A stretch of DNA of 64,000 bases from assembly GCF_037042905.1 (NCBI RefSeq), contig NC_087245.1, forward strand, positions 9,550,001 through 9,614,000, given 5' to 3'. Below the pieces are notes generated by a model, which was not told the origin of the DNA, searched no databases, and saw only the letters and a list, made by a program, of their open reading frames with translations. A program made the position numbers and the translations under genes. Positions 49,232-62,591 of this stretch are shown here, piece by piece. How positions within the stretch are numbered: position 1 is the first letter of the stretch; each line of letters starts with the position of its first letter. The stretch is from Lytechinus pictus (Eukaryota).

Positions 49232-49547
49232 ATGGCTGCCTTTACCAGGCTGCAGACTATCTTGAGGATATTTGCTGGTAGGAATACTACCTATTCATCA
49301 CCATGTCAACCAAGCTGCATCCTCCCTAGAGTAGCATCCTCCAGATACAACAGTACTGAAGCCAATAATCCTACATTGAGTGTACATCCACAGACCAGCT
49401 TATGTGATGAGGCTGTCGACATCAAGGCAAGTGGGTTATCACCAGGACAACTAGTCACTTTAAAAACTCAAGTCTACACAGAGAATGGAAAATATAGATT
49501 TGAATCAAAGGCTCAATACAAAGCTGATACAGAAGGAGAAGTAAGAG
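49232..49547 (+). CDS. ACOT/BAAT-like first coding exon with putative mitochondrial presequence
   Basis: Acceptor TTTTAG ends at 49201, ATG 49232; the only phase-1 donor is G|GTGTGT at 49547/49548, giving EGEVRVQKDPSLGGS, colinear with the ACOT family. Confidence 0.85.
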
Positions 49548-52500
49548 GTGTGTAAGTTTATTTGTGATAATCTTGCCTGAGCAATAATGTTGTTTTTTTC
49601 TCACTGGCTATTTTTCTTCTTAAAAATAACTGAATGAGACAAGTAAATTTTCAGTAAATAGACAGTGCCACTATTGGACGGCCCCAGCTGGTGCTGGTGG
49701 GATAGGAAGAAGTTAAAATTCATTATAAGGAATGAAAAGAAAGAAGAGAAAGAAGTAGAAAAAACAGGAGGATCTGAGTAGTTGAGAAAACATTAAAACA
49801 AAACCTATATGATAAATTCATTTTTTCGAAATTCTGAAATTGCATTTTTTGTGTGAACTTTTTAAGAGTTTCATGAAAAATTGCCCTGAACAAAGCTACT
49901 CTCAAGATTTTTTTTTCAAAGATATTGGATATGCTTTTTTCATCTGACTTATTATCCTTTACATCTTAAATCCATTTCTTGTTAAAGTTCAAAAGGATCC
50001 ATCACTTGGAGGAAGCTATGAGGGTGTTGAACCAATGGGCCCGATCCTGTCCTTGGAACCAATCCCAGAGATTGCTCATAAGTACCCTCGATTTGTCAAA
50101 TGGGATGTTACAAAGCCTTTCAATTATACACTCCAACTTATTGAAGATGGTGAAGATCAGACGAAAGTCATTGCCTCTACATCAATGGAAAAGAATTTCT
50201 TGGCAGACTATGTTGAAAGGATACCAGTCACGATGGGAGGGGCAGAAGGGGTGTTATTCTTGCCAAAACAAAGGGGTAAGCTCTCCACTTTTTATTATCA
50301 CTCTCAAAGAAAAACTGCTCATTTTAGAAGGTAACTCATGTCTATTGTCTTTTAATAGATACATTGTGTGTGGGATTTCATAAACAAAATTTTAGTCCTG
50401 AGTGGTCTTTTGACTATCCAATGAAAAAATTGAGAGGATCAGAAGAATAGAAAAACCAAATGAGATTCCTGCTTTAATACAAGGCTAAAAGTGGCTCAAA
50501 ATTAAATTAAGGTGCCTTATATGGCACTTTGTATGCTTTCTATAATATATATCCTGAGCAAATATTTTCTCTGTCAATTCATATGAATGTATATTAACAA
50601 GCTTTTGTGGTGAATAATTGTTCTGGTAAATTACACCGCTGCCACCCAAATTACAGTAGTAGCAAAATGAGACTTAAGTGTGTGTGTTGCTGAATATAAA
50701 GTGAAATTTACATTCTGCCAGAGATATTGCATTTCTGCATTATATTTTTAATTGATTCTTGAATTTATTAATCTTGACTCAAAACAATTGCTGTTAAGCT
50801 GAAAACATTTAATCATTATTCTTGCTCATCAATGTTTTAATGCAGTACGTGGTCAGGAATTATACTTATACATTATTTCATGATAGTTGAGGAAACTCTA
50901 GCAATTAAAAAAATAATTGAATAATTCTTGTTATCACATGCTTTTCTTGGGAGCCATGCAGTGGAAAATCAAAAGGGCTTAATTTCACGAAATTATAGAA
51001 ATGTGTTACTTTATACTACAAGAACTTTATTATGTCTGTGTCAGTTGTTCATTGTTTAATTTTTGCCTCTCTCTGAAATTAAGATACTATCCTTCAAATG
51101 TGTTTTTGGTATCATTCGTTCAAATTGTTTTCGCTCATACCATATGAGTGGTATCAAATGATGTAAGGAAGATCTGAGCATTTCTCACAATCATCTAATA
51201 AATTACTTATGATTGTGATTGTATAATATGCAGTGCTTTCCACTTTACATGCCCGAAGCGCTTTACATTAAACAAATAATGATAAAACATAAGTCATTCT
51301 GTTTTGTTTTTCTGGGATGTAGTGTACTCCCTGCTGTTAATAATTCTCTTTTTATTTCTATCATAGGATCATCTGATCCACTTCCCTTCATCATTGACAT
51401 CAGAGGTCTACTCACTAATCTAGTAGTAGACCGTGCAGCTACTCTAGCTTCTCATGGGTTTGCCGTCTTTGCCTATGATTACTTTTTGCCTGTCAGACGC
51501 AAAAGTCAAGAAAAGTTTGTGTACATTGATGCTCAATCCTTCATAGTGAGTTTGTCATTACATCAAATCCCTAGTCATATTCCCCCTCAATACTGTATTG
51601 TTCTGGCATGATTATTCTTGTTACCAAGGGAACCTGTACAGAATTGTACTTATGAAACCGATTCCTTGCTCAGCAGTATTCTAGCTAGATACTTCTTATC
51701 GGTGGTCGCAATTTTATGGCAATAGAAAGTTTTTCGGCCAAGTTAGTTGTCTTAAATCCGAAAGTGAATGAACATCATGTAATACATGTAAGTATCTGAC
51801 ATTGGCAAAATGCTGAAAATAAAATCAAATTAAAAAAAAATTAGAATGCTTATTGTGTGCATAGAAAACAAGATTGAAAATGGAAAGTATTAACCTAAGT
51901 ACTATTCTCTTTGCAAGGGGTGGTGTTTGAAACAATTTTTATTTGCAAATAGTGGCAGTCAGAAGCAGTGTTTGTCATGATGAGTGGTGGTCTGAAATAT
52001 TATTTGCTGGTTGGGCCCGACCACTGCTGAATATCGTAGCTATAGCTCTGCTGCTCAGATAAGCTCCTTTCCTCCTTAAAAGATTCTTCTTGAGATCATA
52101 TACCGGTAGTCAATGAATGTAATGATTACACATTTTGTCCATTCTGTCTTCATTCACATGCCTCAGAATAGTTTGACTGAAATGATATTGCAATGCAAGA
52201 AATTATCCTTTTTATTGTTATTAATGTTTTTGTTGTTGCTCTTATTTTTTATTATTAGGTAATTGTTATCATTATATGGATTGTGAGTATGGTCACTGGG
52301 TATTTACTTCCCTTTTAAATGGGATCCCCAATGAAGAAAAACATATTGATACTATGATAAAATAGAATTCTAAAAACAATAACATTAAAAAGTTGATAAC
52401 TTCCAGTTATTCTTCACCCTGTCAAGTTTTCTATAAAAAAAAAATCAGTACAACATGTAAATATGGTAACCTGTCTATGTAAAGCATTTGCAGTATATCA

Positions 52501-55500
52501 AGGACTGTTATCATAGCATTATGAGATCTAACAATTGTATTCTTTACCAATGTGATAAAAAAGAATCATGTTGACAAAGTGACATGAATGTAAGCTTGTT
52601 ACCATCCATTAGGGCTGAACTCGAAGAAAAAATATTGCATTCATGTCACTTTGGCTACTATTGTTTCCAACCAGAACTTCTAACATTCCTTGAATATTTG
52701 GACAAATTTGTATACAATGTTTCGGGCATTGTATATTTCAGGACATTGTAGACTTTGTAAAGGAACATCCACGACTGGATGAGAACAGAATAGGAATGAC
52801 TAGTTCCTGCTATGGAGGAGCAATAATGCTTAATGTTGCTACTAGACTTGATTTACCAATCAAGTGCATGGTTGGTGCTGGTTTTGTTGATTTACTTTGC
52901 GTGAACGTTGGATTGAAAAACCTGGATGGGAGTCTACTTCATCCTTTCAGGTAGGTCTCATAAAAAATAAAGCCACAGATATTTGTATAATATATTTTGG
53001 GAATTATATTTCAGGACATTGTAGACTTTGTAAAGGAACATCCACGGCTAGATGAAAACAGAATAGGAATGACCAGTTCCTGTTATGGAGGTGCAATGAT
53101 GCTTAATGCTGTTACTAGGTTTGATCTCCCTGTCAAGTGCATGGTTGCTGCTGGTTTCCTCGATTTTCTTTGTGTAAATGTTGGATTGAAAAACCTGGAT
53201 GGGAGTCTACTTCATCCAGTAGGGTAGGTCCCATAGGAAAGAATGCCCCTCCCCCTTTCCTACTACTCATATTTGATCAATGTTCATCGAGAATTTATTA
53301 AAGTTAACATACATTTACATGTAACATTGTATTCATCGGAATATTCTACCTTTTGATATATAAAAGTGGTTTTCTCTTTGCTACATATTCAGAGTTGTGA
53401 TTTTACAGGACCTCAGTTGAGAGATCATCAATCATTTGAACAAAAAGCACTTTTCCTCATTTGATAATATAGTGTCATACCAGCAATAATGTTTTAAAAC
53501 TGTACATGTGATTATCATTCAATTGCAGTGACCCAAGCGAATACATTAATACATGGACAGATGAACATGGAAGGAGCTGGATGTCACTTGGAAGTAAGCT
53601 GAAGGACTCTGTTGTTCATAAAGCATTAGAATCCCCGGATGCCACTTTTTGTCTGGTAATTTAATTACTGTTGCTATGAATGTCCTTAGTTTTGTAATGG
53701 TGTGACAATGCTACTGCAGTTAAAGTAAACATCTACTGCAAACTACATGATGATTGATCAATGTACTGACCGACTTTTTGAGGAAAGTGTTATTTATATA
53801 CTTCTTTTTATACGCCCGTCCTAGATGGGACGTATTATGGTATCACCACGTTCGGTGTCCGTCCATCTGTCTGTCCGTCTGTTAACTTTTCCTTGTAAAT
53901 GCGATAACTTAAAGGGAAATGAAACCTTTGGAACAGGTAGGCTTCTGTCGAAACAGAAAAATCAAAGAATAAGAACAAAGAAAGTTTGAGAAAAATCGGA
54001 CAAATAATGAGAAAGTTGTGAGCATTTGAATATTGCAATCACTAATGCTATGGAGATCCTCACATTAGCAATGCAATAAGTATGTGTGATGTCACATGTG
54101 AACAACTTTCCCTTTGATGGACTATAAAATACCCTCAAAATGTCTCTGTTTGCTTTTTCTTATGGTGATACAAACTCTTTATCCATGATGCATTCTTTAA
54201 ACATCTGTATTACATGCCCTCCTATAGAAAGAACACATGATCTACTGATAGATGTGATAAATGAGGCAATTTAAGTGAAATATATACTTAAGTAATGGGG
54301 AGAGTTGTTCACAAGTGACATCACACATCTTTGTTGCATTGCCAATTTGAGGATCTCCATAGCATTAGTGATGGCAATATTCAAATGCTCATAACTTTCT
54401 CATTATTTGTCCGATTTTTCTCAAACTTTCGTTGATCTTCTTCTTTAATTTTTCTGTTTTCACACAAGCTATCTTGTTCCAAAGGTTTCATTCTCCTTTA
54501 AGTTTGGCTTAACCTAGACTCATATAATTTGGTGTGTATGATACTAGCATGGATCCCAGGAAGCCTATTGATTTTGAGGTCAAAGGTCAAGGTCACAGTG
54601 ACATGTTTTCATCTTACCCTTCTGAAGTCTTCGCAAACGTGATAACTTCAGTTTAACTAAACCTAGGCTTATGTAATTTGGTGTGTATAATACTAGCATG
54701 GATTCCAGGAAGCCTATTGATTTTTAGGTCAAAAGGTTCAAGATCACAGTAACATGTTTTCATCTTACCCTTCTGAAGTCCTTGTTAACTTGATAACTTT
54801 AGTTGAACTTAACCTAGACTCATATAATTTGGTGTGTATGATACTAGCATAGATCCCAGCAATTCTATTGATTTTGAGGTCAGAAGGTCAAAGGCGAAGT
54901 TGCCACCTTCCACTTTTCTTGCTTGACCAATAACTCCATTTTCTGTGTTACAGGCGGGCGTTATGTGCTCACCCTTAGAGACATTCTTATTAAGAATATC
55001 AAATAATCCAATAATCTGATTGGTGAAAAGTGCGGACTTGTCTTTAAGCATTCCTGCAAAACATTGAATTTTTGACTAAAGGGACAAAAACTGGTTTAAA
55101 GCAATGGAATCACTCAAGCATGCTGACTAGTACATGTATCTAAGTTCAAAAAAGGGAAAATCACATGCCTTAGCAACATTTCTGAAGAGAGAACTGGATT
55201 GTGTTGAATTTAGCAGGATTGTTTATTGTTTTATGCATTTAATCGTTCATTTGTTAATTTTTTGAAGTAAAAGCAAGTTTATTTCAAATTGGACTTAAAT
55301 TCATTGAGTTCTGCCTTATGATGCCAGCAAGTGTATTGTTTTTAAATCATGAAAAATTCTTACTATTTTTCCAATTTTACCCTGACATTGTCACAGTTGA
55401 TAGATTGCTATTAAAGATTGTAGTCACTAATTGGTCAAAATTACATCATGTAATTGAGGTGCAAATCTGTCTATCACTGTTTCACAGTTTTAACTTGCTT

Positions 55501-58500
55501 TCAATTTCCTCTATCAAGCCCTGTTATAGAACACATAACCCCTGAGGCCTGCAGTCAACAGTGCATTGGCCATGCTTAGCCTCATGTGACCAGCAGCAGT
55601 GCTGTTCCTTAAAGTGATTTAGCCAATCAACTTAAAATTAGAATTACATTAAATGGTCCTTAAATTGGTACCAGTAACACTTGGATTTAGAGATTAATGT
55701 GATTAATAATTAGGTGTACAGTATATAACAGATATGGACTAGGCCCGTTTTGAAATTCCATTTTTGATGCACGTGTACACGTCATGTTTTTCGGTCGTGT
55801 ACACGTTGTAAACACTGAGAGCGAGTTATGTTTTCAGTGTTTCCGACATTTCGACAGGACCCGCATCAACATGTCAATGTTACATAAAAAGGGGTCTATA
55901 TAGCCCTAGTCACGGTTTTAAAGCTTACCTGAGAAGTTAGAAGTATCAATCCACAAAAATTGATGCAATTAAAAAGTTTACTCAGCTTAGCAGCGCATTA
56001 AATTAATAAAGAATGCAAAAGAAAATCAGTGCACGGCCCTAGCTAGCGCCGACATTCGTTGGATGCGCATTTTGCATACTGTACCGTATATGCATGCACA
56101 GATCGCTGCAGAATTAAGTGTAACTGAAGTTATCGATTGATTTTCATTATTTTATTGCCAATTTGAGGAGCGTTTGTTCGTAGGCTTGTAGCACATGTGT
56201 ACGAGCGTATAACACGTAACTGTAGCAATGATCGCTGTCGCAATTGGTGATGCTCCAGGGACTCTGTTTTATAATTATAAGGGGAGCAATAAAAAGCTCT
56301 CCTAGAACTTTTAAGGAGAGCGGTAGAGGAGCACTTCAAAAAGCTCTTCTTCAACATACAAGGGGAGCTTTTTGCCCAATTAACAAAATGGATGGAGGAA
56401 ATGTATGTACTATAAAATTACAATCAACAACCAAAGGAAGTATTTATAATTGTTTTACAATGTATTGTACTTAGATTGTGTGTTGTAAAACCTGTTTTAG
56501 TTAGGTTTTGACTTTGGCTAAAAGTTAAGTCACTGACAATTTTTTTTTTTTTTCGGGGGCTCCATTTTAATTTTTTGGTCAAATTTCGGGGGCTCTTTTT
56601 AAATGCTACTTTTTTGTATTTTGAGGAATACCTGTTCACTTATTAAGGAATTATTACTTTTTGTTTAATATTGTATGATTTTTAAAGTTATTTATCATGT
56701 TTAGAATCTTGGATGTGGGTGTGTGTGGATGGGTGGGTGTGTGCGTGTGTGTGTGACTGTGAGTTGGACTTGGATATAAATGAATTCAATACCGGTATCT
56801 AATTTCTACTCCATTTATTCCAGTACAATACCCTAGTCAGCCATGTACATGTAATAAAGGCCCACTTACCCTAACTTTTCCTGAAGTTCTTTGAAAACGC
56901 AGATCTCCATGAAAATTTAATTTCTCTATGGGGGAGTCTAAATTTGGTGAGAATGTATTCATTAAGAACTTAAATATACATGACAATGAAGAAATCATCA
57001 AACTTTATTGGCAGTTTTGAATAATATTCCTGAAATGTAAACTCTGTCTGAAACAGAAAATCACCATCATTGAGGCCTTTACTGAGCGAATTGTCCCCCA
57101 GAGCTCTGGCAGAGAGACAGAGCTCCAACTGGCTAGCTAGTAAAAGCGCCAATGCGTGAGCCTGCCGCCGTCCTTGTAAAAAAGATGGAGCTTTGTTTGA
57201 TGATTTATTGTCTGATATAATACCTCATCCCCTAGAAAAAGATAACAAATGATTTTTTAGTTATAATTGATAAATTAGATAACTTATTTTGGAAGTTAAT
57301 AAGCCGTTTTGAAAAGCAAAGCCGAATGACAACTCACCAATGCTAGGTCACTAGACTCTGGGATTTATTTCCTGTGTAATTCAAATTATTTTATCACAGA
57401 ATTGTGATATCTGTAGGGGAAACATGTGCATTCGAAATGGCACACGGTGGTAGTCATAATGGACCCCTATACATGCAACTCTTTCCCGACCGTACGCGTT
57501 GCGTTGATTTTTTTTCCATACCTGGTACCATGTGTATGGAAATACGTGGTACAGAAAAAATAACGCAACTTCGGAATTTGAAACTGCGCTACTCGCTACT
57601 TTTAAGGCTTATTCGTGATTTTGAGTGTGGATTTTGGATGGTTTTTAAATGGTAAGCGGAGCTCGAGCATATGGCACTAGTGGGCCGTTGAGTTGTTATC
57701 ACTCGGCAATAATTTCAGGGGCGACATTCAGATTTTATGTCGCCCCCGAAAGCATGATTTTGGGTGATTTCGAGGGCGACTTTAGGCATTTTCGCGCAGG
57801 TCAGCTATCGCGAGGAGCTGGAGCGCTATTAATCGCGCTACCAAAAATGGATTAAGGCGCGCATGTAGCGCGCGATCGCTCTCGCGCGCCTTAAAATCGA
57901 GTCCCTGATGCTCAAATTGGCTCTGAGTGTGATTGAGCAACGCTTTCGAGCTTTCGAGACCGGAGCAGACCCATTTCGTGGTACAAAACTTGAGTCTCCA
58001 GAATGAATGTGGATTAAATGGGCGATTTTGGAAGTAAACTCACTCTAGGTTAATTGAAATATATTGACATATTAGTGATTAAAACATGTGCAGTTTCTGA
58101 GAACTAAGAATTAATGTGAGGCTGTGAGCTTGTTCACTGACTTTACAGTCCCATGCAAGCTTTATGCAGATGCTACCGTGTACACGGTGATGGAATTTAG
58201 TACACGTGCACTGACTTGACCGTGCGTGTACACGTGTACCCGAAACGGGACTAATATGGACTGGTCTGTATTCGGATGATGATGGATGCCATCACTCCCT
58301 TGAGCTTGGTGCTTTTAGCTCTTTACACTATAATCCAGTTGTGACTTATTAGTAATTGTGTGGTGGGGGTCATAGATATTCTGATGCAAATAACCAAATA
58401 GCTGCGCTGTGTCTTTTGCCAAGAAACCTGCTATAGAGATGCTGAGTGGCTTGCTTTCCTACATTCCCCAATCATCTACTAATATGATAGAATTTGAGGA

Positions 58501-61240
58501 TGAGCAATGAAAAGACACTTGCGAATTCCTATTTGGAAAGATATGGATCTGACATTTGGTAACGTGCATAAATCCATTTTTGTTTTCTTTCCAACAGGAG
58601 GAAAATGTAAATTGTCCCTTGCTATTGTTTTTACATGAAGACGATCAGCACATCCCATCTCAAGCAGCAACCAAACATGTAAGAGTCTTTTATCTACTCT
58701 GACGTACTAGTCCAGCGCTTTTCATCCTATGGGCCACGAGAAGCTCCAGAGGGAGAAAAATAGCTGAAAAACTGTAGTATATTTCACAGACCTGTCCGAA
58801 CATATTATGTCCGATCAGTCTACGTGGGTGAAACAAAACTAAAGCTAGGGTTACACCAAACACAAATTCTCCTGAATAATTTCTGACCGGATCAGAGGTG
58901 AATCGGTCCCGAATCAGAGCACAATTGCCAATAATTGACTTCCAAGAATTGCCCAAATGCCTCCTGGAACATGCAGAATCCAACCAAATTCTTTCCCAAT
59001 ACATCTCGAATTTGGCCTGAATGAGATTTGTCATGGTCACATTCTGGGTATTTTGAAGGGTATTCGGCTGGCATTCGAGGAGGGAGAACAGAAACCTCCT
59101 GAATCCTCCCGATTTGATTCGGGAGCTCCTGAATCAGACACGAATAGGTTTCGAATCCACCAAATCCATCCGACTTCGGCCAAATTTGGCTCAATTCGGT
59201 CTGAATTTATTCAGGAGAATTCCGTTTTGGTGTAACCCTGGCTTTAATCACGCATGCACATGCACACTATGGTGGTTTCAATCTAACTTTGATGTGAACC
59301 TCATGTGCATGCATGTAGTTTAGTTACTTATCGCCCTTTGGGAATGCAGATTAGTTCTCAAACTGTTTGGCCCAAATTCACAAAGGTGGTTTCAAAAACT
59401 ATTGGTTGAACCTGTGGTTTATGCAGATTTCCTGCATAAATCACGCTTGAATACCTTGTATATTAGAAATGTTCAATGCTGATGCGCGCTTTGTCACAGT
59501 GCGCCGAATTGACACCTGTTGCCATGGTTAATTACGCTATTTTATTCATGAGTCCACTGTTTTGAATTAAGGAGTCCACTCTTCAAACAGTGAACTCATG
59601 AATAAAATAACGTATTTAACCATGACAACAGGCGTCAATTTGGCGCACTGTGACAAAAGCGCGCATCAGCATTGGACATTTTTAATATATGCGGCATGTA
59701 AGTGTAATTTATAAAGGAGATCTGTGTAAACCATGGGTTCAACCGATGGTTTTTAAAACCACCTTTGTGAATTCGGCCTTTGTTTCCAATGAGCTATGTA
59801 TTGAAATTTCACGAAACATTTTTTCATCAAAATTGACGTTTTCTTAAAATTTTGGTAGGTGGGACTCGAAAAAAATCTGAGAGTCAAAGTGGTCCTTGAG
59901 TCAAGAAAGGTTGAGAAGTGCTGTACTAGTCATTCACCTTGAGTAATTAAGAATTATTGGATTTAAACCTTAACACAAAATGAATTTGGATAAGAAGGTA
60001 AATAATGAAGGTTTTGTCATAGTAATAGCTTAAAGGGGTATTCCAGGCTGAAAATAATATGATTTGAACAGATAAAGAAATACCAGACAATCCAAATACT
60101 GAAAAATTGATCAAAATCAGACAAGGAATAACAAAAGTTATAGCATTTTAAATATTTGCATTATTTCAATAGAACATTTCTATACATGTCTTCATGAACA
60201 TTCATTGAGGAAACTGATGATGTTATCCCATCTTGCTCTTTTAATTGTGTGGTAATATCATATTGGAGGATTTTATTAGTACTGTGCATGTTGAAACAAG
60301 AATGTACTTAAAGGTCAAGTCCACCCCAGAAAAATGTTGATTTGAATAAATAGAGAAAAATCAAACTAGCATAACACTGAAAATTTCATCAAAATCGGAT
60401 GTAAAATAAGAAAGTTATGACATTTTAAAGTTTCGCTTATTTTTCACAAAACAGTAATATGTACAACTCAGTATCATGCGAATGAGTCAGAAGATGATGT
60501 CCATCACTCACTATTTCTTTTGATTTTTATTGTTTGAATTATACAATATTTCATTTTTTACAGATTTGACAATAAGGACCAAGTTGACTAAATCATATAG
60601 TATTAAACAATGCTAATTCCACATGTTCAGGGAGGAATTAATCGTTGTTTCCCTTGACACTGAGGAGAAAATTAGAATATTTCATATTTCATATAATAAA
60701 ATACAAAAGAAATAGTGAGTGGATGACATCATCAGTCTCCTCATTTGCATACCGACCTGGATGTGCATATAACTGTTTTGTAAAATTAAGCGAACTTTAA
60801 AATGTCATAGCTTTCTTATTTTACATCCGATTTTGATGAAATTTTCAGTGTTATTCGTATTGGATTTTTCTCTTTTTATTCAAATCAACTTTCTGTCGGG
60901 GTGGACTTGTCCTTTAAAAAAAGACATGATACCAATATATATATATATATATAATGTGATGACAAGTTTACTTGTACCAAACGCTCTTGAGGTGTGAGTA
61001 TGAAACATATTGTGATGAGGCCAACTCAAAAGATGACGCAGGACACCATTTTAGCTTTAGTCTTTAATAATAAGACTTCGTCAGAAGCGTCTGTAATTAC
61101 AGACTATTATGGTCAGGATGCCTACCGTATTATCCTGACCATAATAGTCTGTAATTACAGACGCCTCTGACAAAGTCTTACAAAAGACGAAAGCTAAAGC
61201 TAAAATGGTGTCCTGCATCATCTTTTGAGTTGGCCTCATC

Positions 61241-61278
<38 letters not shown>

Positions 61279-62591
61279 TATATATATATGCATAAAAACT
61301 ACCTAAAGGAGACAAGGAAAATTATTGTTATATGGGTAAGTAGATGCTCTAAAATGATATTAAGATATTTCTGACAGGTGAATTGTAGATATTGTCACTT
61401 TATTCGGTGATTTGAAAAGTCAATCATTATTTGGGTGATGTAGGATATATTTTATTATCATCTATATACAGTGTTTTGTCATAGTAATAGCTTAAAGGGG
61501 TATTCCAGGCTGAAAATAATATGATTTGAACAGATAAAGAAATACCAGACAATCCAAATACTGAAAAATTGATCAAAATCAGACAAGGAATAACAAAAGT
61601 TATAGCATTTTAAATATTTGCATTATTTCAATAGAACATTTCTATACATGTCTTCATGAACATTCATTGAGGAAACTGATGATGTTATCACATCTTGCTC
61701 TTTTAATTGTATTTTATTACATAAATTATGTTTATTAAAATTTTTTCTCCAAGAGCTAAAAAAAAATTGATCGAAAATTGAGTTGATGCATTAGATATTC
61801 ATTGCTTCAACTTATTTCAATTTAAGGGCAACATGTTATCCACAAATGTATGTAAAAATGAAGTAATTATGATTTCATGTAATAATATACAAAATGGGAA
61901 AGTGGGAATGTGACACCATCAACCCGCCTAATGAATATTCATGATGATGTGCATATAACTTTTCACAAAATATTGCTAAACTTGAAATTCAATATTCAAT
62001 AACTTTGTAATTTTTTTTCATATTTTGATGAAATTTTCAGCATTTATTTGCTTTTTTTATCTAGATATATATTTATTATCAGCCTGGAGTACCCCTTTTA
62101 AATCAAAGTTTGATTACATTTGTACAATATTGATGGCAGATGAATTCCTAATGACTTGCAAATCAATGTTCTGCTATTACATATGATTTTAAAAAATGAA
62201 TTACTTATCTCAGTTTTATTTTTCATTTTGAGAGCTGTACATGATTTTTTTTCAAATTTCCATTGTTGGACAAGATGAAACAGCAACAAATAAGTGGGAT
62301 TATAATAAAGCTGGTGTCATTTTCTTCCCAGTTATTTTGTCCTAATTCACACTTCATTTATGTTCCGAAATTTATAACATACTCAAATAATTCCAGTTTC
62401 TACAATAAAGAGGAATGTCTTTGAAACCTTTCTGTCTTTGCAGCTACGTGATCGCTTGAAGAGAGCTGGCAAGGGTCATTTGTTGGAGTTTGTGACCCTA
62501 CCTGGAACAGGTCATTTTTTGGAGGTCCCTTATCAACCTATCAACCTGGTTTCAAGTCTCTATGACCCAACTGTACTCCAAACTCCTAAAT
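49232..62591 (+). CDS. Acyl-CoA thioesterase / bile acid-CoA:amino acid N-acyltransferase (ACOT/BAAT) family protein; last exon(s) probably right of the window
   Basis: Phase-compatible exons 49232-49547, 49988-50275, 51367-51545, [52742-52950 or 53015-53223], 53529-53655, 58598-58678, 62444-62591. Motifs YKAD..GEV, PSLGGSYEGVEPMG, IIDIRG..RA..LASHGFAV, nucleophile SSCYGG, LLLFLHEDD (Asp), LPGTGHFLEVPY (His). Confidence 0.92.
49988..50275 (+). CDS. ACOT/BAAT-like coding exon 2
   Basis: TTAAAG acceptor, QKDPSLGGSYEGVEPMGPILSLEP...GVLFLP, GTAAGC donor, phase 1-1. Confidence 0.92.
51367..51545 (+). CDS. ACOT/BAAT-like coding exon 3
   Basis: CATAG acceptor, GSSDPLPFIIDIRGLLTNLVVDRAATLASHGFAVFAYDYF, GTGAGT donor, phase 1-0. 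Confidence 0.92.
52742..52950 (+). CDS. ACOT/BAAT-like exon 4a (nucleophile exon, alternative copy A)
   Basis: 209 bp, TTTCAG/GTAGGT, open frame DIVDFVKEHPRLDENRIGMTSSCYGGAIMLNVATRLDLPIKCMVGAGFVDLLCVNVGLKNLDGSLLHPF. Confidence 0.88.
53015..53223 (+). CDS. ACOT/BAAT-like exon 4b (nucleophile exon, alternative copy B)
   Basis: 209 bp, TTTCAG/GTAGGT, open frame DIVDFVKEHPRLDENRIGMTSSCYGGAMMLNAVTRFDLPVKCMVAAGFLDFLCVNVGLKNLDGSLLHPV. Confidence 0.88.
53529..53655 (+). CDS. ACOT/BAAT-like coding exon 5
   Basis: TTGCAG acceptor, phase 2 start matches exon 4, open frame DPSEYINTWTDEHGRSW...PDATFCL, GTAATT donor phase 0. Confidence 0.8.
53805..54988 (+). mobile_element. Helentron-associated (HINE/DINE-1-like) non-autonomous element
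   Basis: Starts TTTTTATACGCCCGTC, GTCY microsatellite, tandem about 150-bp central units, 3' subterminal inverted GGCGGGCGTTAT. Confidence 0.72.
53913..54497. mobile_element. Kolobok/T2-like palindromic MITE
   Basis: TTAA TSD; TIRs AGGGAAATGAAACCTTTGGAACA; long inverted arms. Confidence 0.85.
55740..58253. mobile_element. hAT-like non-autonomous element
   Basis: TIRs TAGGCCCGTTT / AAACGGGACTA; perfect 8-bp TSD ATATGGAC; subterminal CGTGTACACG palindromes at both ends. Confidence 0.85.
58598..58678 (+). CDS. ACOT/BAAT-like coding exon 6 (EENVNCPLLLFLHEDDQHIPSQAATKH; catalytic Asp)
   Basis: Polypyrimidine tract plus CAACAG, 81 bp, GTAAGA donor; aligns with the family LFLVGxDD motif. Confidence 0.88.
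58843..59243. mobile_element. Harbinger/PIF-like MITE nested in hAT
   Basis: TIRs AGCTAGGGTTACACCAAA / TTTGGTGTAACCCTGGCT; TAA/TTA flanks. Confidence 0.7.
59369..59778. mobile_element. Fully palindromic MITE nested in hAT
   Basis: GGCCCAAATTCACAAAGGTGG ... CCACCTTTGTGAATTCGGCC with about 200-bp arms; TTT flanks. Confidence 0.8.
60312..60913. mobile_element. Kolobok/T2-like MITE
   Basis: TTAA TSD; AGGTCAAGTCCACCCC / GGGGTGGACTTGTCCT. Confidence 0.85.
61011..61243. mobile_element. Hairpin MITE with TGT...ACA ends and ATAT TSD (Ginger-like)
   Basis: About 110-bp near-perfect arms; ATAT on both sides. Confidence 0.75.
61496..62096. mobile_element. Kolobok/T2-like MITE
   Basis: TTAA-flanked AGGGGTATTCCAGGCTG / CAGCCTGGAGTACCCCT. 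Confidence 0.8.
62444..62591 (+). CDS. ACOT/BAAT-like coding exon 7 (catalytic His, LPGTGHFLEVPYQP)
   Basis: TTTGCAG acceptor, GTAAGT donor; matches family YPGxGHxIEPPY motif. Confidence 0.92.

Follow-up and report, generated by a model that had tools for sequence, protein, structure and literature searches.

In the alpha-tropomyosin gene, exons 2 and 3 reportedly exclude each other by steric hindrance, the branch point being too near the upstream donor, a mechanism said to have been described by Smith and Nadal-Ginard in 1989. In a 64,000-nucleotide (nt) stretch of the Lytechinus pictus genome (contig NC_087245.1, positions 9,550,001 to 9,614,000 of assembly GCF_037042905.1; hereafter the window, numbered from its first letter) we examined a pair of neighboring exons, 4a and 4b, that may behave in a comparable way within a gene of the ACOT/BAAT family. 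Mutually exclusive exons that arose by tandem exon duplication are well described, and criteria for recognizing them exist (Kondrashov and Koonin, 2001; Letunic et al., 2002; Pillmann et al., 2011; cited in the excerpts of PMC6071210 that we draw on). The same excerpts refer to FGFR2 exons IIIb and IIIc, for which exclusivity is backed by nonsense-mediated decay (Jones et al., 2001), and, together with excerpts of PMC7797038, to systems such as Dscam, MRP and ATE1, in which exclusive choice depends on pairing between docking and selector sites in the RNA.

We conclude that 4a and 4b are very probably a genuine and selectively maintained mutually exclusive exon pair. As such, the pair is a textbook case, the standard outcome of tandem exon duplication, and its isoforms are already present in the automated public annotation of two species. 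What is particular here is the host family (ACOT/BAAT), the exon concerned, which carries the catalytic nucleophile, and the lineage, Lytechinus.

Two versions of exon 4 in tandem

The features of the pair, by position in the window, are as follows.

52742–52950, plus strand: exon 4a, 209 nt, encoding DIVDF...SSCYGG...HPF; the version found in L. pictus isoform X2 and L. variegatus isoform X1.
52951–53014, plus strand: spacer intron between 4a and 4b, 64 nt, with GTAGGT as donor of 4a and ...TATATTTCAG as acceptor of 4b.
53015–53223, plus strand: exon 4b, 209 nt; the version found in L. pictus isoform X1 and L. variegatus isoform X2.
52732–53247, plus strand: the duplicated unit in two copies, with a period of 273 nt, delimited by direct repeat and alignment.

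The original prediction, made from the letters of the window alone, described two 209-bp exons running from phase 0 to phase 2, open and with intact splice sites, only 64 bp apart, and the sequence bears this out in every detail. Each copy encodes 69 residues without a stop, in the same length and phase, and is preceded by ...TTTCAG and followed by GTAGGT; the acceptor of both copies is the same pyrimidine-poor ...TATATTTCAG, and both use the donor GTAGGT. A repeat search placed the pair in a direct repeat family, 52732–52974 and 53005–53247, of 243 nt at 87% identity and a spacing of 273. Because this is one of only two families of at least 40 nt within 50000–56000, the similarity of 4a and 4b is far beyond chance. 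The copies align without gaps over the exon plus about 10 nt of upstream and about 24 nt of downstream intron. Very probably, a 273-bp tandem duplication copied exon 4 together with its splice sites in a single-copy Lytechinus gene, both copies then being kept.

In a scripted comparison, 182 of the 209 exon nucleotides were identical between the copies (87%), leaving 27 differences with an uneven distribution. The first 27 codons encode identical residues, including GMTSSCYGG, and hold six nucleotide differences, all synonymous (codons 11, 12, 14, 20, 23 and 26). Nine amino acid differences follow at codons 28, 32, 33, 36, 40, 45, 49, 51 and 69, and a tenth falls in the split last codon (AG/T for Ser in 4a, GG/T for Gly in 4b), giving I/M, V/A, A/V, L/F, I/V, G/A, V/L, L/F, F/V and S/G in order. 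All ten lie C-terminal of the SSCYGG cysteine (codon 23). The identical first 27 residues with their six silent changes, and the same ten replacements behind the nucleophile, had been read off beforehand and reappeared unchanged in our comparison.

Public annotation already treats the copies as alternatives. RefSeq lists two isoforms of 495 residues for L. pictus, XP_063951482 (isoform X1, with exon 4b) and XP_063951489 (isoform X2, with exon 4a), and a matching pair for L. variegatus, XP_041474212 (X1) and XP_041474221 (X2). By alignment, the isoforms within each species differ solely in the stretch encoded by exon 4. Together with RNA joins of exon 3 to 4b, 4b to exon 5 and exon 3 through 4a to exon 5 (below), these isoform pairs corroborate the claim that 4a and 4b are alternatives of one gene. 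An older L. pictus RefSeq model, XP_054749419, contains exon 4b and has its last 43 residues replaced by a different C-terminus, which may reflect alternative use of a 3' exon or an error of the earlier gene prediction.

An assembly or haplotype artefact would be expected to leave a short tandem repeat such as this one of 273 bp, and we considered whether the duplicate is such an artefact; nothing else was found in favor of this view. Against it, 27 of the 209 exon bases differ between the copies, with more differences in the flanks; both copies occur in RNA-derived contigs or reads of three further studies carrying the same species label; and a second species, annotated independently, has both, with matching copy-specific residues. 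An artefactual duplicate is already refuted by these observations, and we give it practically no chance.

Splicing of one copy at a time

Because the exon length of 209 nt is 3n+2, only inclusion of a single copy keeps the reading frame. Joined in silico, exons 3-4a-5 and 3-4b-5 remain open. Joining 3-4a-4b-5 yields ...HPF RTL and a stop (AGG ACA TTG TAG) at the fourth codon of 4b, and joining 3-5 yields ...SFI and a stop (TGA) at the first codon of exon 5; neither product contains the catalytic Asp and His. These are precisely the dead ends foreseen in the original prediction, which had AG/G ACA TTG TAG for the use of both exons and TGA for the use of neither. Exclusivity at the protein level is guaranteed by reading-frame arithmetic. 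Each productive mRNA would accordingly take exactly one copy, giving two isoforms of 495 residues, distinguished by 10 positions just C-terminal of the nucleophile Cys.

RNA data were available over 51300–53700 from four runs: raw stranded reads under the window's own species label (run X19) and three runs of contigs, X2 and X15 among them, and X9, which is under a second species label. Junctions were listed from three reads upward. In X19, seven reads joined exon 3 to 4b (51545>53015) and eight joined 4b to exon 5 (53222>53528). Read depth in this run was 10–14 over exon 3, 10–16 over 4b and 6–10 over exon 5, with introns near 0, and 2.2–2.7 over 4a, about one-fifth of the 4b depth. The first mate lay on the minus strand in all reads, which fits an mRNA from the plus strand and the usual stranded protocol. 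The few X19 reads over 4a have the 4a-specific letters at positions 52836 and 52853 and so are not wrongly placed reads of 4b.

The contigs also contained both versions. In run X2 the variable part appeared as separate pieces of 193 nt, at depths of 25.1 for 4a and 18.1 for 4b, next to 52.1 and 56.1 for the shared exons 3 and 5, so that the two versions roughly sum to the whole. In X9, a 796-nt contig at depth 22 read exon 3-4a-exon 5, and another, at depth 5.4, read exon 3-4b followed by the retained downstream intron. In X9, exon 4a has C in place of T at 52836 and G in place of T at 52914, which encode Ala32 and Trp58, as in the 4a-type isoform of L. variegatus. Both 4a and 4b are therefore present in spliced RNA, and for L. 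pictus 4a this rests on exon-level depth, 4a-specific reads without intron signal and the RefSeq model. Neither a joint between 4a and 4b (52950>53015) nor one skipping both (51545>53529) was listed in the four runs, whose low depth leaves room for rare forms. Differences in the 4a:4b ratio between samples suggest that the choice may be regulated.

Two further observations came from the same RNA data. Within intron 3, the stretch 51950–52030 appeared in contigs of several runs and of both species with unrelated flanks, in depth spikes of 12.7–16.1 with loose ends at 51958–52030; it is presumably a dispersed, transcribed repeat. At 53176 the reference has A and all 13 of 13 X19 reads have G, which lowers the count of 27 differences between the copies by one. 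Same-species RNA also departs from the reference at 51527 (T>C, 10/10) and 51428 (A>C, 8/14), and all three mismatches are ordinary polymorphisms.

Two processes could enforce the choice at the RNA level. The 64-nt spacer probably blocks splicing of 4a to 4b sterically, because a branch point 18–40 nt upstream of the 4b acceptor would be separated from the 4a donor by no more than 46 nt. A strict yTnAy motif occurs only once in the spacer, 10 nt from that donor. Nonsense-mediated decay, for its part, probably clears mRNAs with both copies or neither, which should be substrates because their stops lie at least three junctions upstream of the end.

A third possibility is pairing of one docking site with selectors at both exons. 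Within 51546–53528 we found 11 inverted repeats of 12–38 nt, short and AT-rich, none of which convincingly links one site to both exons. The two that have an arm downstream of 4b, in the following intron (I5 and I7), are interrupted by deletions in the second species. Separately, an imperfect hairpin (I2) lies at 52570–52658, with 31-nt arms that are 81% complementary and a 27-nt loop. It sits 84–170 nt upstream of 4a, just beyond the duplicated unit, and could be either a small inverted-repeat element or a structure relevant to splicing.

Several points weigh against a genuine exclusive pair or limit how far it can be pressed. For the species of the window itself, no listed junction is diagnostic of 4a, the X19 reads across 4a junctions being below the three-read threshold. 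Two contig joints were listed as 51545>52742 in X2 (30 nt on the exon 4 side) and as 51545>53015 in X15 (29 nt on that side). Exons 4a and 4b share their first 32 nt, so these joints cannot separate the two exons and were counted for neither. Of the joins proposed for a check, those of 4b (seven and eight reads) and, in a contig of X9, 3-4a-5 were seen, and a 4a-discriminating junction in L. pictus was not. The lack of double inclusion and double skipping rests on about 15 junction reads from one raw run plus contigs, and contigs drop rare variants. Contig word depth is also a poor measure of expression, and what it shows about the 4a:4b ratio is suggestive only. Both steric hindrance and nonsense-mediated decay are deduced from distances and stop positions. 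Finally, the ten residue changes are all conservative, nine of them hydrophobic swaps.

Selection and history of the duplication

Between 4a and 4b, the Nei-Gojobori method counted 15.5 synonymous and 10.5 nonsynonymous differences, which correspond to a synonymous divergence (dS) of 0.44, a nonsynonymous divergence (dN) of 0.069 and a ratio (omega) of 0.157. The excess of synonymous change is significant (Fisher p = 5e-6), and six of six changes in the first 27 codons being synonymous has P ~1e-4 under neutrality. Because dN/dS is 0.16 at a dS of 0.44, the duplication is old and both copies are constrained. Purifying selection on both exons, as originally proposed, is upheld by this ratio, by the Fisher test and by the intactness of both copies in the second species. 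In L. variegatus, annotated isoforms and the X9 contigs agree that both exons are present and neither is degenerate.

Between the two Lytechinus species the peptide of 4b is unchanged and that of 4a has three residue differences; seven of the ten residue differences between the copies are common to both species. At the DNA level, the second-species contigs carry seven other letters over 207 nt of 4a. For 4b, two second-species differences were listed, one of which (53176 A>G) is also found in all three own-species runs.

The lower depth of 4a in the sole raw RNA run, about one-fifth that of 4b, and its three residue changes between species against none in 4b, are what would be seen if 4a were a decaying or noise-level pseudo-exon and functional protein came from 4b only. 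The remaining evidence speaks otherwise. Exon 4a is open with intact AG and GT sites in both species; the 3-4a-5 contig of X9 is the deeper one (22 vs 5.4), and in X2 the depth of 4a (25.1) is at least level with that of 4b (18.1). Had one lineage been evolving neutrally, the pairwise omega would be higher than 0.157, and residues derived relative to the outgroups are similar in number for both copies (I28, I40 and G45 in 4a; F36, L49, F51 and L58 in 4b). We regard decay of 4a as very unlikely.

In a maximum-likelihood tree of the 70-residue exon 4 segment, Lytechinus 4a and 4b grouped together (81/84), with Strongylocentrotus purpuratus and Diadema outside, and the two 4a orthologues grouped with each other (83/85); these groupings come from a short segment, and no branch among them reaches the threshold for strong support. 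At face value, the tree would place the duplication after the split from Strongylocentrotus and well before that of the two Lytechinus species. Gene conversion, if it took place, would also draw 4a and 4b together in such a tree. Two features of the exons bear on this: the difference-free runs at the exon ends (1–32 and 166–203) are jointly unlikely (P ~0.005 by permutation), and at residue 58 the 4a of L. pictus has Leu, as in 4b, and that of L. variegatus keeps the outgroup Trp. The runs and Leu58 suggest partial gene conversion, or else constraint on splicing signals at the exon ends.

The host enzyme and known systems

The L. pictus isoforms were laid out on the window by tblastn, which placed seven of the eight coding exons (4a and 4b counted as one). 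The exons other than 4a and 4b are listed below.

49232–49547, plus strand: exon 1, which holds the start codon and encodes an N-terminal extension and the first part of a Bile_Hydr_Trans-type N-domain; tblastn residues 1–105, 100%; donor confirmed in the sequence.
49988–50275, plus strand: exon 2; tblastn residues 104–202, 99%; splice sites confirmed in the sequence; RNA loose ends before 51369 carry the end of this exon.
51367–51545, plus strand: exon 3, ending in phase 0 with ...SFI, donor GTGAGT; tblastn 100%; X19 RNA depth 10–14.
53529–53655, plus strand: exon 5, whose first base T fills the split codon and whose phase-0 reading starts with TGA; X19 depth 6–10.
58598–58678, plus strand: exon 6, with the catalytic Asp motif LHEDDQH, aligned to GQDDHN of ACOT2; placed by tblastn.
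62444–62591, plus strand: exon 7, with the catalytic His motif PGTGHF, aligned to PETGHY of ACOT2; placed by tblastn.

Exons 1, 3 and the core of exon 5 matched at 100% identity, and the other exons fell below 100% only where the local alignment overran the exon edge into the intron. RNA loose ends behind 53656 read AGGAAAATGTAAATTG, the start of exon 6. The last coding exon (residues 453–495) was not found in the window by tblastn. The 4.9-kb intron that separates exon 5 from exon 6 contains, at 54433–54883, a roughly 150-nt unit repeated three times in tandem at 66–85% identity, probably a satellite or transposon fragment.

Precomputed annotation gives the full-length isoforms PF04775 (Bile_Hydr_Trans) and PF08840 (BAAT_C). 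On single exons, the Pfam BAAT_C model scored 25.6 bits for 4a and 19.6 bits for 4b, the latter just below the cut-off of 20.9. Among solved structures, human mitochondrial ACOT2 comes closest (3HLK; E = 2.8e-42 over residues 48–483), at about 30% identity as read off the printed alignment. Cys284 aligns with the nucleophile Ser of ACOT2 (GISKGG), EDDQH with QDDHN and GTGHF with ETGHY, and C284, D388/D389 and H424 are invariant among 16 echinoid sequences. Judged by sequence, its product is an alpha/beta-hydrolase of the type-I ACOT/BAAT family and has a Cys-Asp-His triad.

The Lytechinus isoforms begin with an Arg-rich extension of about 45 residues (window 49232–49370), modeled as a low-confidence helix; it is missing from the shorter S. 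purpuratus form P0004 and present in P0010. The extension may be a mitochondrial presequence like that of ACOT2; at the other end, the C-terminus (...DWISS) appears to have no obvious peroxisomal signal.

The original prediction took the ten changes to alter residues of the pocket, and on present evidence this is a hypothesis. An AlphaFold model built from the 16-sequence alignment has a mean predicted local distance difference test score (pLDDT) of 61, and 66–91 over residues 262–331; it was used through its scores and secondary structure. It puts residues 289, 293 and 294 in the helix after the nucleophile (H286–296) and 297 just behind it, 301 and 306 in the next strand, beta6 (E301–307), 310 and 312 in the loop after beta6, and 330 and 331 in the loop at the exon end. 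This makes four changes in or adjoining the helix, two in the strand and four in loops. In alpha/beta-hydrolases the loop after beta6 lies at the active-site edge of the sheet.

It may be, then, that the splicing is real and the isoforms are biochemically equivalent, each copy serving as the default in some tissues or stages in a neutral partition. All ten substitutions being conservative is what this account would predict, and the triad and SSCYGG are untouched. By the model, the changes fall in or near the post-nucleophile helix and in beta6, usually places of core packing, and in loops. The L. pictus 4a is identical to 4b in its 3' part and has Leu58 where L. variegatus 4a has the outgroup Trp, which suggests exchange between the copies, not divergence. 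Set against equivalence are the omega of 0.16 at a dS of 0.44, which implies long maintenance of both copies, and the 4b protein that is identical between species, with seven of ten copy differences in common, which fits two maintained versions; residues 310 and 312, just after beta6, would also be at the active-site edge of the sheet. Equivalence is a serious contender that falls only a little short of being probable. A regulated functional difference between the isoenzymes is possible, and we would not expect it on balance.

The most far-reaching interpretation, which we hold tentatively and think rather unlikely, is that one Lytechinus locus would supply two isoenzymes of a BAAT-like acyltransferase. 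The module around their nucleophile, made up of the helix behind Cys, beta6 and the following loop, would be swapped in a regulated, sample-dependent way that changes acyl-CoA or acceptor preference. Partial gene conversion would keep the exon ends identical, perhaps for splicing signals, and exon duplication would have solved what gene duplication did in Strongylocentrotus, Diadema and mammals. If the isoforms do differ in specificity, the ten residues would pinpoint determinants near the active site, in a family whose specificity rules are unclear even in mammals, according to the portions of PMC6934887 we draw on.

The same portions give the human BAAT triad as Cys235/Asp328/His362, with Cys as nucleophile, and note that Cys versus Ser predicts specificity poorly in the BAAT family; ACNAT1/2 have a Ser nucleophile (PMC6934887; PMC10470208, likewise in part). 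The Lytechinus protein has the same two-domain architecture, PF04775 plus PF08840, as human BAAT, ACOT2 and ACOT4. As to acyltransferase type, the Cys nucleophile appears to be the only feature it has in common with human BAAT.

With regard to splicing, the closest parallels differ in instructive ways. Like alpha-tropomyosin exons 2 and 3, the Lytechinus alternatives are separated by a very short intron (64 nt in Lytechinus). The tropomyosin exons are said to be a multiple of three, so that sterics alone must act, whereas the Lytechinus exons are 3n+2. In FGFR2 IIIb/IIIc, as in 4a/4b, double inclusion or skipping leads to a premature stop, with nonsense-mediated decay a likely consequence in Lytechinus too. 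The Lytechinus duplication also copied flanking intron, a precondition of the Ivanov-Pervouchine model of docking/selector systems, but no convincing example of the competing pairing characteristic of those systems was found at the locus. From tandem-duplicated mutually exclusive pairs at large, 4a/4b show no difference in kind: these too are adjacent homologous exons of equal length and phases, with intact splice sites, a non-3n length and one copy per transcript. In the open literature we found no report of mutually exclusive exons in ACOT/BAAT genes or in Lytechinus.

The comparison with gene duplication sets the locus apart within its own family. A protein search with the 4a peptide returned two clusters, Lytechinus and Strongylocentrotus. 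Genome-wide, we found one gene of this subfamily plus three distant paralogues at 35–47% identity, with no exon duplicate within 1.5 kb on either side in those three. In S. purpuratus there are two or more closely related genes, alike in their exon 4 peptide except at the first residue, and Diadema has several separate genes; both have one version of exon 4 only, as known from proteins, not genomic DNA. Mammalian BAAT, BAATP1 and Acnat1-2 arose through tandem gene duplication (PMC6934887, in the portions used). The contrast that had been drawn with mammalian gene duplication finds support there, and it extends to S. purpuratus and Diadema, which likewise have several genes with a single exon version each. 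Should the isoforms prove equivalent, the pair is mainly a test case for frame-enforced and short-spacer mechanisms in a deuterostome invertebrate. In either event, it offers a clean natural experiment on exon versus gene duplication in one enzyme family, with one gene and two exon versions in Lytechinus, and several genes with one version each in S. purpuratus and Diadema: in mammals and the other echinoids sampled the ACOT/BAAT family diversified by duplicating genes, whereas in Lytechinus it was the exon that was duplicated.

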